Below are positions 6,001 to 30,000 of a stretch of DNA of 64,000 nt, piece after piece. The position numbers are program-made. The stretch lies in the NCBI RefSeq assembly GCF_030384885.1, contig NZ_CP128614.1; one strand, given 5' to 3'. The number at the start of each line of letters is the position of its first letter. The stretch's first letter is position 1. This stretch comes from Escherichia coli. GTDB lineage: Bacteria; Pseudomonadota; Gammaproteobacteria; Enterobacterales; Enterobacteriaceae.

Positions 6001-9000
6001 AATGCGTAAAAACATCTCTTTGGTCATTCAGATACCCCCTCAACTTTGCGAATTTTGATCAGATGAGGGCGATTCAGTTTACAAAGTTGTTCTGTCGCTT
6101 CATCAATCGAATTGAACCGATGAGCCTCTTCGATATTTAAAGTCCAGTATTTCGCTTTCCCTTCTCCCAGATCGGACTCAAAATAATTTCGCTTTACATC
6201 CATTTTTTTAGGCCTGCCATTTATCTTGACGACATTATGTCTGTCATCAAAAAGAAATTCGTCCCCCTCAAAAGTGATTAATACAAATGGCCCCTCAGGC
6301 TTGGAAGTCCGGGGACTTCCCATTTTCAAAGTCATACTTCAGCCTCTCGATAGAACTCATGAAACCTCAAATTAAAATGGACTCACACCACACTGATTCA
6401 GTATTCCTCCTGAACCCCATTAGGCTCTGTTGTGATTTCATATTTAATACCGCCAGGTGCTCCCACAGCGTCCGCGACCGACTCACACAGCAGCGAGAGA
6501 TCGTTGAGGGTCATTGGGTGTTCAATGTCCAGCGTGAAGAGTTTCCCGGCTTGCTTGGCGGCTGTCTTGTCAGCATGTTCAGCATTAAAAAGGTATACGG
6601 TGTGTTTTTCCTGAGCGGGGGTATTTTGATTTTGCATTGATGATCCTTTTGTTTAGTTCCCCGATTCCGGGGGTGAGTGAATTAATTTAAATTTATATTT
6701 GTCTGGTTTAATTAGAACGTTTCCAGGCTATGCGTAAACAGGTAATGCAAAGGCTGTATCAACAGGATTAAAGTTACTTTTCTGGATGCAGCAACGCTTG
6801 GACATGATGTCCACATTACATCACGATCAAAGCTAAGTTTTTTTTGTATAACCCCTTCATTTTCGTGTGTTTCGCGTTTCAGACGCTTATACGACCTGCC
6901 TGACCATCCTCATCAGAAGGCGGTTTAACAGTCCTTTCGCTGTCGGGCGATTGCTATCGACATAGTAAAAACCTGTTTTGGTCGTACCGTGAGCACTGCT
7001 CAGCACCCTCAGTTCCCAGATAACGTCACGGATAACGCCGCCATTTTCTGGCTTAAGGCATTCAGATAAATGGCGCATGAAACGAGCTCTTACGGCACGG
7101 TAATAGCGGAACTCCTCTGGCTGGTTAGTATTTTCTTTCACCCGGAGTCGCTGGTTACACAGAGTTAGAACTGCATCCATCATTCCCGCCTTCAGCTTCG
7201 CCTGGATCGCACCTTGTTGCTGTTCCCTCTCACCTTCGAGTAACGTTAAGATTCTTTCTCCGAGTGCCGTCTTGTTGTGTACGTGCAACTGTACACAGGC
7301 AGCTACGCATGCCCAGAATCTGAACTTTTTTATCTGTCCACGCAATTTCCGGGCTACAACCTGACGGTATGCAGTATCGCTGAGTATTTTAAAACGCCGA
7401 CTGGCAACCAGCTCTGGAAGCGACACTCTTTCGCCTATCCCCAGGCGGGAAAAGGTTTGTCCCCGTTGTGCGAGACGATGATAGACAGCGCCCTTCCCTT
7501 TTGAAATTCGGACCGCGCCATAACGAAGAAGATACTGAGCAGCAGTCGTTGGAGTAAACTCACCGTCAGCGATGCTCTGGCGTAACCCGTCGTATTCATG
7601 CCAGATAATCCAGGACGCCGTATCTTCTTCAACAGTCAGCTCATCCTCTTCCTCGAATGCCACGACGACAGAACTGCTCTCTCCGGTCTTTAGGCTACGT
7701 GAAGCCCTGGGGTCAGCCTGCCCGTCAAAATAGGTCATCAGCGGCAACGTATCAGTCAGTCCATCATAAGCTGTACCGAACCGGCCTCCGGGCAGTTTCA
7801 TCCAGAGTGGAGCTGGCATTGGTGTACGGGCCACAGGCAGCATGTCAGGCTCATCCTCAAGAAGGTCCAGATCGGCCTCTTCCCAGACTCTGCGATAGAT
7901 CTCAATTGCCCGAAACGGGCGAGGGTTGAAACAGTGCAACGACCAGAGGAAATCAACGTGGATCACGTTTGCTTCATGTACAAGCCGAAATTGTGGCTCA
8001 GCCATACGACGGTTATAAGCCGTATCGTCCACCTCGCCGGAAAGTAGCTTTCTGCGATGCTTTGCCGCACGTCTGGCTTCAACATAATCAAGGCTGCAAC
8101 AGACATGAAAAAGACGTTCAGTCAGGGACGAAGAAAAGATATTGGGTTGAAGACGCACATACCCGCCTTCGAACACTTTACGACCGATATAATCCCGCAG
8201 GCTCCAGTCGTACTGGATCTTAGAAAGAAATCGCTGAAGACGACTTAGGCCTGCCTGATAACCATATTTCTCAGGGTCAGTGCGAAGGAGCGTTTCCATT
8301 GAATGGTCAACCCCTACGGCTGTGCAAAGCGAGCACCCATATCTAGCCCCACAAGCTGAGGTTCGCGTGGGTTTCTCCGGCGACCAGATACACTCTCCGG
8401 TGGCGTCTTTATAAAGCGTTGCCAGGCTGAAGTTATCCGGCATAAAGCTTGGTAAAGGGAAGCGGGATTCGGAACCACAGGCCATTAGAAAAGACCAGAT
8501 GTCCTGAGTGCGCCACTCCTTTACTGGATAGAGTTCACCACCGTGCTCAGTCAGGGTTACTTTCCTCGCCTGCCCTCCCATTTTGAGGATATTTCCGGCC
8601 CTTCGGGCACTTTCATCATCCCTGGAGCCCAGCATCAGGCATACCCTGCTTCGTACGGATGCCGGGGCGTTTTTTAGATAACGAGCTTTGGCCTTGCGCA
8701 GGGGGGCGATTTTGTAGTCACAAACTACTACCACACTGTTACAGTGTAGAAATTCTGGAAGGCGGTGCCAGTGTTGGTTTAGGATAATGTTAACAATTTT
8801 TCCAGAGTTTTCAGAGAAAAGAGATTTTGAGTGACAAACCACTGATGTTTTCCAGAATCACTTTCTCTTAGAAGATCGATAAAGTCTGTCTATGGGGAGG
8901 ATCGTCTCCCAGGGTGAAGTCAGTCCACTTCACCGAGTTGCTTCCCCATCGGTGGGTTCTTCAAAAGGGCAACATGGCCGCCCTCCAGAGGTGAACGTAC

Positions 9001-27000: not shown

Positions 27001-30000
27001 ACGGTAGCGATAGGCAGGTTTTAATGCTTTTACTGCAGGAAAGTTATCCCATGCAAGTTCTTCAGACTCCAAAAAGCACCAGTAAAATTTTAACGCTCTT
27101 GCATAAGAGCTAAGGTTTTCCAGTCTTTTTTCAGCTTTGAGATGTATAAGCCATTGATTTACAGGTTCTATATAATTACCATCATAACCATACAATGTAG
27201 GAAGTGGACCCACATTTCGTCCCCCCCTGAATTCAATCGATTCATCTGTAGTAATGATATCACCACCAATAAATACATCTGCTGAGTTGAGTAAATAAGC
27301 CAAGAATGCAGACCTCCAATGGTTGTAAACTTCTGCCATGCTCATTCTCCAAAGCCTGATGCTGTTTCCCCGGAAGATAACAAGAAAAGACCGGGTGTGT
27401 GGCTATGAAGAAGATCCTGTATAACTTGAAGAACATGTCCCCGGACATTATATTTCAGTGACATACCTTAGTTATGTTTAGCTCATCTTCAGCGAAAAGC
27501 CAGTACCAGATTAATCATCTGGAAGAGGTGAGCATCTGTTAAGTTTAGACAATATTTCCCGGAACGAGAAACTAGCTGGAAAAATGGAAGAGGAAGGTAT
27601 GAATCAGCGTTTCATCTGGTTTGCGGAAAACAGAGACAAAAAGTATAGGGAGGATATCGATGCTAACATATTTTCTCAATGAGATAATGTGTGATAGTAA
27701 TTTAATGCTTATGTAAAATTGGGCTACCCATTGAAAGAACCAAGAATCAATATAACTGGATAGATGTTTTGGATGAATTGTTCCTTCAGAAATAAGTGGG
27801 GTCTACATACTTTATCAGGTTCAACAGTCTGATACAAAAGATAGTACAACCTCAGTGCCTGGCTGTTTAGCGCTGGTTTTAAAAGGTTAATCAAAGGTTT
27901 TGAAGGAAGGATGATTGAGCAGTAACAGCCTTATGAAGGTTGTATACATTGATACTGCGTGCCCGGAGAGAAAATGAGAGGGTGAGGCATCGGTTTCACC
28001 CTCTCATCAGCCGCTGATATGCTGATGGAAATAAACCACTAGGGCGTACTACTGTATGCTAGATCCCTTTTAATTTAATCATCTTCTGATTTGTATACAA
28101 CAACTTTGATTGAGATTTTATTTTTGACAGACGTAACTTATTTTGGCTGAAAAGTTGTATTCGCTACCCTCATGAAATTAAAATATGCGGAGTACTTTCT
28201 GCCCTGAAAAAGACGCTTCCGTGAAAAGCAGATAAACCCTGATGAGAAAAGATGGTGATCACTAACTGACTAGTAGTGATGTTAATTCACGTTTTTTGAT
28301 TTTTAAGTTCGATACAACTACGTGATAATTTATAGTTTTTATGGGAAAGTGATGCGTTTTACTGAGGGGTGGCATTCTTCAGTAGGGTAAAAATTAATCT
28401 TCCTACAAATTAGTTCTTATATATTGAGATGCTTGGAAAGAATCCGGACTTATGAGTATACGCCATGCTCTAAACGCAAAATTAATGATACGACCATTAA
28501 ACCTCCCTCTTCAGGGTCAATGGCTTCAGTGGGTGTTTTCCAGGCTAATGCTCTGTTAGAGGTATTGCACCATTTCAAAGCAGAATCTCTGTTCCCCTCA
28601 AAAAGCGCTAACGCTTTTAGATGTAGAACACTTTTGGTCATCATCTGTGATCCTGAATGACTTTTTAGTACTTCAAAAAGGTTGCTTCGTAGAGTCATTG
28701 TTTCGGGTCGTTACGAACTCAACTGTGGCAACCTTGCTTGTCATGATTTCCGAACCTACCTGTCGGGGCACAGATAATGCCAGCAAAGATACTATTCCAT
28801 ACGCTATCCCAAAAAGTTACTTTTCTATAGCAACCTAAACCAGTGTGGTTGTGACCAGTCCCCGGTATTAAACACCATAGTCAGTTAGTAATATCAGTTT
28901 TCTTTCTTTATCCCATTTTGCCAGTCTATTGCAAACTCCGCTGGCGTCAGAAAATTCAGTGAGGAATGAGGCCGACATGCTCTGCACTCTGACCTGATAG
29001 CATAAAAAAACTGGCTTTTTAGGCCAGTTTTACAGAGTTGCAAAGGTGTAGGTATAGTTTTTCTACACTAACGTGTCATGGTAGGTTGAGCACTGACGGG
29101 TTGAAGAATTAGTCCAGGTCGGAAGTCCACGTCCAGTCAGAATGCGGCCTACCCAGCTCTGCGTAAGAGACGGTTGGGCGACAAGGACTGTGACCGGTAG
29201 CTGGTGTTCAGCAATGAACATTCTAAGCTGGTTGAGAACCTGTGAAGCCTGATAGTGCATCTCAGGGTTTTCGATCAGCGTATCGGACATCTGAATGAAA
29301 TGATGTTCGCTGATATTTGTGCCGTTACGTACTGCCCTGATCAATGCCATCAGAAATAGGTGAAGAAGAGAATGGGAGTCTTTACCGCCACTGTATCCCA
29401 CGCACATCGTCCATCCGTCCGTAATAGCCTGATAAATAGCAGATGTGGCTGACGTGACCAGAGAAGAAAGACTCACAGTCTCCTTTTCATCGGTATAGTT
29501 CAGATCGGCATCGGTTGTCAGGGTCTCCCAAACATCAGCCCATTTATCATGTTTCAAAATGGCAGCATTAGCCGCCTCAGGAAAAATAACTTCTGAGGGT
29601 AATTCAAGGAATGAGTCACTTTTTTCAATAAACATATATTTTCCTGAACCACGGCATATGCTGCATCACTGATATTTTTATTAGAACTTTAAAATAACTA
29701 CAGCGCAACCATTTAGCGAAATTATATTAAATCAAAATCACGCAAATTTAATTCTTAAATAGATTTAAAATAAAAACCCATTGTAATTTAATCTCCCAGC
29801 ACAGCTATTAGATATAGGTTGGTGGTGTAATAAAAGCCGTGACATTTGTTTTCAACTCAGACAGCGGAATTGAAGGAGTGTTAAGAGTCATGTCATCACC
29901 ACAATGGCGTGGTAGAGCAGAAAGCTGAAATGAATCTTTCATCACCCTAATAACCGGGCATTCCGTACGTGCTGATGGCATTACTTCCCGCAGCATCGCT

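Follow-up and report, generated by a model that had tools for sequence, protein, structure and literature searches.

The window that we analysed, a stretch of 64,000 nt from Escherichia coli (contig NZ_CP128614.1 of assembly GCF_030384885.1), represents the backbone of an IncHI2 plasmid with an insert of 20,364 bp. We identify this insert as a copy of the catalogued strand-biased circularizing integrative element (SE) SE-EasCA1043. It separates two open reading frames (ORFs) on the minus strand. Their positions, 6887..8842 (651 aa, GTG start) and 29063..29635 (190 aa), and their motifs, CGARYGCSLC in the 651-aa ORF and SGGKDS in the 190-aa ORF, had been given correctly by a first-pass annotation of the window. 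That annotation favoured two separate paralogs of the phosphoadenosine phosphosulfate (PAPS) reductase type, one of them truncated, and named one gene split by a recombinase-borne element as the alternative. The alignment of both ORFs to consecutive regions of one protein and the existence of an empty site show that the alternative is right.

Both flanks of the insert match 981-994 PLSDB records, nearly all IncHI2-type and conjugative. The flank-matching plasmids are mostly large and conjugative and come from E. coli, Salmonella and Enterobacter; the inspected records were typed IncHI2A. The E. coli plasmid pMCR1_025943 (NZ_CP027202.2) is collinear with the window, with 100% identity over 2098-8719 and 99.96-99.99% identity over 29081-64000, a shared stretch that includes repHI2. 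The 20,364-bp insert is the sole difference between the two.

In pMCR1_025943 the site lies inside an intact gene of 2,385 bp, encoding a 794-aa "phosphoadenosine phosphosulfate reductase family protein" (WP_000469466.1). In the matching IncHI2 plasmids the flanks abut, and the 794-aa protein is intact in the ~980-990 records matching each flank. When WP_000469466.1 was compared with the window by tblastn, residues 1-184 aligned to 29635..29084 with 100% identity and residues 185-794 to 8719..6890, without overlap between the two parts. PAPS_reduct, the only Pfam domain of the intact protein (residues 78-264), crosses the break at 184/185; the SGGKDS PP-loop corresponds to residue 82 and the CGARYGCSLC cluster to residue 307. 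Because the two ORFs cover consecutive, non-overlapping residues of one protein and PAPS_reduct spans the break, they are the halves of one IncHI2 backbone gene, which was interrupted between codons 184 and 185. Since the domain crosses the break, the "degenerate PP-loop-like stretch" reported for the 651-aa ORF is the downstream portion of the same domain and not a second PP-loop. Each ORF also runs on into the adjoining end of the insert: codons 1-41 of the 651-aa ORF (8842..8720) and the 6 final codons of the 190-aa ORF (YHDTLV*) are such read-through and do not belong to the gene. The parts of the gene and the junction features are as follows.

6887..8719, minus strand: 3' part of the DndC-like gene (codons 185-794 and stop), located by tblastn, 100% DNA identity to pMCR1_025943, carries CGARYGCSLC
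8720..8725, minus strand: SE footprint beside C' (attR), ACAAAC on the plus strand and GTTTGT on the top strand of the element, missing from the empty site
8726..8745, minus strand: terminus C', TACTACCACACTGTTACAGT, the reverse complement of the published ACTGTAACAGTGTGGTAGTA, exact match (Additional file 6, PMC10214605)
29064..29083, minus strand: terminus C, the intA-proximal end (attL), TACACTAACGTGTCATGGTA, exact match to the published terminus
29084..29089, minus strand: central 6 bp of the plasmid attB, GGTTGA on the plus strand and TCAACC on the top strand of the element, native to the plasmid
29084..29635, minus strand: 5' part of the DndC-like gene (codons 1-184), 100% by tblastn, carries the SGGKDS PP-loop

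The empty site reads ...TTGTAGTC|GGTTGAGC... with the core GTAGTC|GGTTGA, which places the junctions at 8719/8720 and 29083/29084. The insert (8720-29083) is composed of a 6-bp footprint and an element of 20,358 bp, and there is no target duplication. The sharp change in composition described earlier is real, with a GC content of 52% in the target gene (left ORF) and 36% in window 8720-12200, but the left junction is at 8719/8720 and not at 8.9-9.1 kb. Likewise, a cargo block does exist between the ORFs, but with 20,364 bp and not 18-20 kb. A palindromic site and an antitoxin remnant at 28.4-28.8 kb had been taken as a hint that the right junction may be nearer 27.4 kb. Both are internal to the insert: between 27.3 and 29.15 kb there are only small palindromes of 10-12 nt, all inside the element, and every chromosomal copy of the element has the whole region of 27.4-29.08 kb with an unchanged layout. 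The checks proposed with the first-pass annotation gave adjacent, not identical, regions of one protein for the two ORFs and an uninterrupted gene in the related replicons (pMCR1_025943 and the ~980-990 matching records). The third one, a search for direct repeats at the edges, gave none of at least 11 bp between 8650-9150 and 27300-29150; besides the inverted terminal AGTGTAGAAA, the edges shared only 9-10-mers at chance level. Alignment of both ends of the element revealed imperfect inverted repeats.

SE-EasCA1043 was catalogued from the chromosome of Enterobacter asburiae CAV1043 (NZ_CP034336.1; entry 7 in Additional files 6 and 8 of Idola et al. 2023, Mob DNA 14:7, PMC10214605), where it was recovered as an SE through Tfp/Srap searches (PMC10214605). 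We reassembled the chromosomal copy (CP034336.1) from three fetched loci and compared it with window 8726-29083. Over the 20,358 bp from C to C' the two copies differ by 5 substitutions and no gaps (99.975% identity), and the GC content of the element in the window (42.02%) equals the published value. Of ten element proteins that were looked up, eight exist publicly as exact sequences, on up to ~460 contigs, mostly of the Enterobacter cloacae complex. Five of these eight (IntB, Srap, the cyclase, a 407-aa protein and the antitoxin) are identical in sequence to proteins of the AZL641xx series, and Tfp falls into the 90% cluster of AZL64186.1; the consecutive GenBank accessions AZL64172-AZL64187 cover the genes of the element. 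Termini C and C', core genes, cargo and GC content are common to the published copy and the copy in the window, but the sites differ: the published copy is located at the 3' end of chromosomal gor, the window copy inside the IncHI2 DndC-like gene. The marks are swapped as well, with attL GTTTGT and attR TCAACC in the published copy and attL TCAACC and attR GTTTGT in the window. All junction hexamers were re-read from the sequence record itself and not taken from the lines of the PMC10214605 supplement; the machine-read att lines there are slightly wrong (GTTGTG for GTTTGT and a surplus C after TCAACC). The table in PMC10214605 gives a length of 20,288 bp, and mapping onto the record puts C 70 bp beyond the tabulated SE_end coordinate.

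At the C end of the element a catalytic recombinase gene (intA), a non-catalytic one (tfp), a second catalytic one (intB) and a small gene (srap) follow each other in the order of SEs, all four intact.

25966..27345, minus strand: intA, tyrosine recombinase of ordinary size (459 aa), Pfam Phage_integrase with R, HxxR, H and Y
24225..25961, minus strand: tfp, 578 aa, predicted tyrosine-recombinase-fold protein without recognisable catalytic motif
22096..24216, minus strand: intB, large tyrosine recombinase, 706 aa from ATG (the ORF reaches a GTG at 24258), exact identity to AZL64185.1
21659..22099, minus strand: srap, SE-associated recombination auxiliary protein, 146 aa, exact identity to AZL64184.1, WP_023309561.1 (CDS4 of PMC10214605)
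21321..21641, minus strand: Srap-like short ORF, similar in its middle to the coiled C-terminal portion of Srap (blastp E=1e-8, 50% over 36 aa)

The motifs GLRIEE, HDLRCSYA, GHKNE and KYLRY of IntA are kept in its homolog from a second SE lineage, which is found on the Klebsiella michiganensis record CP124767.1 and is described below. In IntB the candidate R, HxxR and H..Y residues are kept in comparison with a 45%-identical homolog, and the match to Pfam Phage_integrase was marginal only. Tfp had no Pfam match. Nothing significant was obtained for IntB against solved structures or for IntB and Tfp against Pfam and NCBIfam, these proteins being too divergent for sequence profiles. The exact Tfp sequence is present on 177 public contigs (WP_023309559.1, CDS2 of PMC10214605).

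The gene module, the imperfect C/C' repeats (of the ~13-20 bp type), the one-sided 6-bp footprint without duplication and the small number of sites all agree with an SE. The prototypes SE-6283 and SE-6945 of Vibrio alfacsensis share intA-tfp-intB-srap at the C end, imperfect terminal inverted repeats, the lack of target duplication, a 6-bp attR footprint, a preference for certain targets and occurrence on a chromosome as well as on a conjugative plasmid. They differ in sequence lineage, host family, target sites and cargo, and strand-biased circularization is experimentally established for them, whereas for the element in the window it is extrapolated. Tn554 of staphylococci (tnpA, tnpB, tnpC) differs by having no counterpart of Tfp and by its Firmicutes hosts.

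According to the rules published for SE footprints, the 6 bp beside C are the target's own and the 6 bp beside C' come from the C side of the donor (PMC10214605; bioRxiv 10.1101/2022.09.22.508988). We read the junction hexamers in loci that were sampled from the longest contigs only. Chromosomal copies are located at the gor 3' end, with rsmJ-gor on one side and a trehalase gene on the other. At this site the attL hexamer beside C was GTTTGT or ATTTGT (11 loci), in frame with gor, and the attR hexamer beside C' was TCAACC in 8 of 10 loci; within the IncHI2 gene it was attL that carried TCAACC (6 loci), and attR carried GTTTGT in the 2 of these loci where it was read. The footprint at 8720..8725 is identical to the 6 bp beside C at the chromosomal gor site, and GGTTGA/TCAACC of the plasmid attB is the fingerprint seen as attR footprint of the chromosomal copies; plasmid and gor site bear each other's hexamer. 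In every copy read, the hexamer beside C was native and the one beside C' foreign, never the reverse. The bases just outside the TCAACC footprint vary with the host species. Only two contexts of the element were found, the 3' end of gor and a single position in the IncHI2 gene, and a metagenome scan for terminus C added two copies at gor without revealing another context.

The C end of the element (TACCATGACACGTTAG) mimics the final codons of gor, as seen at attL of the CP034336.1 copy and at all gor-site loci. The occupied gene ends in EEFVTMTR*, compared with EEFVTMR* in the native gene as derived by joining the flanks. Because of this mimicry, insertion leaves a full-length glutathione reductase, while the plasmid target receives no such repair, and the DndC-like gene of the plasmid is inactivated by the insertion.

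These observations can be arranged into one course of events, which follows the published SE model. IntA and IntB, together with Tfp and Srap, would join attL and attR on one strand. A circular copy with attS would form, whose 6-base spacer is the host sequence beside C, and the donor copy would be retained. The circle would then integrate at a preferred site, with the central 6 bp of the target beside C and the imported spacer beside C'. The reciprocal hexamers at gor and at the plasmid site are what this model predicts for movement between both. The window copy would derive from a chromosomal copy at the gor 3' end (spacer GTTTGT), IncHI2-gene copies (spacer TCAACC) would have seeded most of the sampled Enterobacter gor-site copies, and the conjugative plasmid would be the vehicle of the element between cells. 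We assign a probability of about 90% to this explanation as a whole, namely that one IncHI2 gene was split by a copy of SE-EasCA1043 that arrived from gor and that the plasmid serves as the vehicle.

The same insertion recurs on other plasmids. In pMY490-mcr-9 (NZ_CP053569.1) the element is present at the same phosphodiester bond as in the window. The flanks of the two insertions differ by 2.6% and 4.4%, with single-nucleotide polymorphisms within 12-16 bp of both junctions, and the elements differ by at most 0.5%, part of which resembles assembly error. Since the flanks have diverged up to both junctions while the element is nearly identical, the two insertions are most simply taken as independent events in two diverged IncHI2 lineages. 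The pMY490 type of flank is also present in a third record (L009), and the chimeric 190-aa product of the window-type junction occurs on 12 public contigs. Enterobacter cloacae MY490 holds two copies, one at chromosomal gor (CP053568.1, attR TCAACC) and one on the IncHI2 plasmid (attR GTTTGT); both ends of the proposed exchange are found in one cell. The recombinase genes of its plasmid copy are annotated in fragments, possibly as a result of assembly errors.

In IncHI1B plasmids from Klebsiella michiganensis and K. oxytoca, the homologous gene (75-78% identical) harbours a second SE lineage, inserted at codon 119 with the orientation reversed (CP124767.1 of K. michiganensis, ~15004-34099; also NZ_CP115680.1). 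Compared with the window, its core proteins are 41-45% identical, its termini near-identical and its cargo 88-94% identical, and it has the same GTTTGT footprint. This lineage is apparently a mosaic whose core module was exchanged. DNA similarity between CP124767.1 and the window stops at about 21.35-21.48 kb of the window, near the Srap-like ORF, which is located directly downstream of the real srap and is present in all copies of the element. The Srap-like ORF is probably the relic of an earlier exchange of the core module.

For two separate PAPS-reductase paralogs, one truncated, that flank an unrelated island with its right edge near 27.4 kb, we see practically no chance. Both ORFs do bear motifs of the same superfamily, and the antitoxin remnant and small palindromes are present at 27.9-28.7 kb. 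Against this, the ORFs are consecutive residues (1-184 and 185-794) of one protein with a domain spanning the break, the site is continuous in ~980-990 records, and 27.4-29.08 kb is arranged alike in every chromosomal copy of the element. It is also very improbable that the insert is a genomic island with three integrases (GInt), a recombinase-in-trio (RIT) element or a different island with a recombinase trio, moving through conventional excision and integration, leaving its donor emptied and owing its spacers to heteroduplexes as in Tn916. Three tyrosine-recombinase-like genes and a small fourth gene at one end fit GInts too, which also share cargo, a short distal end, site-specific insertion and circular forms (PMC5385486). 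Furthermore, the reciprocal hexamers taken by themselves could be explained by carry-over of coupling sequences, and the strand-biased route assumed for the element in the window is that of the published SE model. A GInt had been our first guess from the recombinase trio and the small gene, and was dropped because of the order of catalytic residues and PMC10214605. In GInts the catalytic ginA and ginB are followed by the non-catalytic ginC (PMC10214605), whereas here the order is catalytic, non-catalytic, catalytic; it is the second gene and not the third that has no motif. The element was found through Tfp/Srap searches, and SE and GInt proteins form separate clusters (PMC10214605); the separation of the proteins from those of ginABCD relies on these published clusters. 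Finally, the foreign hexamer is always the one beside C'. Such one-sidedness is predicted by strand bias and would not result from a heteroduplex resolved by replication.

A further alternative accepts the SE and reduces the role of the plasmid: TCAACC would record a single ancient jump from plasmid to gor, gor::SE would have spread by recombination or descent, and the window copy would be a rare dead end. We regard this as unlikely, although it carries more weight than the alternatives above. Plasmid-borne copies are rare among finished plasmids, chromosomal copies occur on hundreds of contigs, and the element is nearly identical everywhere. On the other hand, the bases after TCAACC and the attL hexamer (GTTTGT or ATTTGT) track the host species, so that recombination tracts would have to end within a few bases of both junctions. 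In addition, the plasmid site was struck independently in two IncHI2 lineages, the window-type junction is present on 12 contigs, and MY490 holds a chromosomal and a plasmid copy.

Returning to the explanation by movement of SE-EasCA1043 between gor and the IncHI2 plasmid, several points weigh against it. The plasmid-borne state is rare in finished sequences, with 1 of 72,556 PLSDB records and 0 of 5,426 complete E. coli genomes. Two of the 10 gor-site attR sequences carry other hexamers, ACAACC and TCTACG. Donor sites with TCAACC outside the sample of longest contigs remain conceivable, and one early plasmid-to-chromosome event combined with other spread could yield the same TCAACC pattern. 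By our own reading of the sequences, the plasmid attB resembles the gor attB only weakly. SE-EasCA1043 lies outside the SEs tested in PMC10214605, and attS, strand bias and transposition are extrapolated to it.

The deviating attR hexamers, ACAACC at locus L021 and TCTACG at L023/L031, imply a mutated or different donor site. The copy at L023/L031 has lost most of its cargo to an insertion of the IS3 family.

We lean slightly towards a wider view, in which the position in the IncHI2 DndC-like gene would be a regular docking site for a non-mobilizable SE and most copies in the E. cloacae complex would have been delivered by plasmid, with TCAACC as the receipt. As part of this docking-site view, the position in the homologous gene of IncHI1B plasmids may serve the second SE lineage in the same way, and the element may alternate between a harmless harbour at gor, where the frame is repaired, and the plasmid. 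If this holds, the spread of an island with CBASS (cyclic-oligonucleotide-based anti-phage signalling system) and HEC-08 genes by a major resistance-plasmid family could be traced per event from sequence.

That SEs exist as a kind of element and that SE-EasCA1043 is a member is already published, as are the tracing of SE moves by footprints (bioRxiv 10.1101/2022.09.22.508988) and the role of plasmids in SE spread (PMC10214605). In the searchable literature we found no report of the location in the IncHI2 gene, of the hexamer exchange between gor and IncHI2, or of SE-EasCA1043 as a carrier of defence genes. The understanding of the SE mechanism is unchanged by our results. For annotation, they mean that the two ORFs should be read as halves of one disrupted gene and the intervening 20.4 kb as SE-EasCA1043 instead of "hypothetical proteins". 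The locus would be a sequence-only record of an SE using an IncHI2 plasmid to pass between chromosomes. SEs lack transfer genes, IncHI2 plasmids are among the main carriers of mcr and extended-spectrum beta-lactamase genes, and CBASS and further defence candidates travel along. In surveillance genomes, such transfers could be counted by means of the 6-bp marks. The conserved DndC-like plasmid gene can, as the locus shows, be lost without the plasmid being lost at once.

The 794-aa target protein is predicted to be a DndC-like PP-loop protein of the PAPS-reductase family, but not DndC. Comparison with the DndC family (TIGR03183) gave 117.6 bits at a cut-off of 290.4, the alignment was limited to residues 66-361, and the C-terminal ~430 aa were without a match. 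No dnd-annotated neighbour of the gene was seen in the inspected stretches of pMCR1_025943, and a literature search on the function of the IncHI2 PAPS-reductase-family gene returned nothing specific. In two other IncHI2 plasmids (NZ_KX246266.1 and CP100026.1) an IS4-like insertion sequence, ISVsa5, is annotated in the stretch matching the gene region, and the match is in two pieces, which points to a separate insertion in this gene or next to it and suggests that the plasmid can do without the gene.

The cargo of the element is made up mostly of predicted anti-phage (defence-candidate) genes.

9085..10191, minus strand: HEC-08/DUF3644 protein, 368 aa, candidate single-gene anti-phage system (PADLOC E=5.7e-70; DUF3644 E=1.7e-44)
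10690..11913, minus strand: 407-aa membrane protein with nucleotidyltransferase-like C-terminal part (weak PADLOC match to a 4TM effector, E=7.9e-05; weak Pfam Aminoglyc_resit)
12249..16846, minus strand: type II CBASS operon, by PADLOC and Pfam, all four models matched
16846..15776, minus strand: capV, patatin phospholipase (PADLOC 5.5e-107)
15776..14475, minus strand: DncV-like cGAMP synthase, the cyclase (PADLOC 6.9e-215)
14475..12706, minus strand: Cap2 E1/E2 (PADLOC E1-E2 1.1e-274)
12719..12249, minus strand: Cap3 JAB (PADLOC 3.6e-57)
17297..17593, minus strand: HTH_3 regulator, 98 aa, upstream of capV (profile matches)
17853..18709, plus strand: nickel-resistance remnants (HupE/UreJ-like; NcrY OB-fold), 88-93% DNA match to Klebsiella/Enterobacter plasmid ncr loci, Pfam BOF
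19213..18902, minus strand: XRE control protein (PADLOC control protein, 3.8e-25)
19205..19882, plus strand: VspR-like protein, 225 aa (Pfam VspR_N/VspR_C)
19870..21264, plus strand: ResIII/RadD-like helicase (Pfam ResIII; NCBIfam RadD 2.9e-15, under the cut-off)
28453..28644, minus strand: Xre/MbcA/ParS antitoxin C-terminal domain, 64 aa (NCBIfam Xre_ParS_antitoxin 6.7e-11)

Cyclase, effector, Cap2 and Cap3 are contiguous or overlapping on one strand, as expected for a type II CBASS. The CBASS locus of Vibrio cholerae VSP-1 is capV-dncV-cap2-cap3 with a vspR regulator. The predicted operon resembles the type II CBASS of VSP-1 and of E. coli TW11681 in having the same four components, identically ordered, and in the VspR-like gene nearby; it differs in being SE cargo. 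The nickel-resistance remnants are placed between the CBASS and helicase modules. The 407-aa protein is named "nucleotidyltransferase domain-containing" or "inner membrane protein" in its source records. The antitoxin remnant belongs to the SE, as it has the same place in all chromosomal copies, and tblastn revealed no RES toxin partner or remnant for it.

A scan of GTDB species representatives for C' gave one match, in a metagenome-assembled genome of Sphingobacteriales, against ~9 expected by chance (18-mer, 298 Gb), which makes it uninformative. One public contig of ~20.3-20.9 kb that was suspected to be a free or circular element turned out to be ordinary chromosome. A 20,316-bp contig of Salmonella enterica (GCA_020016735.1), of which the first 13.1 kb were read, lacks about 21 bp of the element's C end at its start. 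Its length implies an end similarly short of C', as expected for several contexts in that genome, which is suggestive but not decisive.

The remainder of the window, from ~31.3 to 64 kb, is ordinary IncHI2 backbone. Its contents, as derived from the collinearity with pMCR1_025943, include an orphan N6/N4 DNA methyltransferase, a RelE/ParE toxin, three large proteins with immunoglobulin (Ig)-like domains, repHI2, a Dam methyltransferase and a DUF4942 protein.

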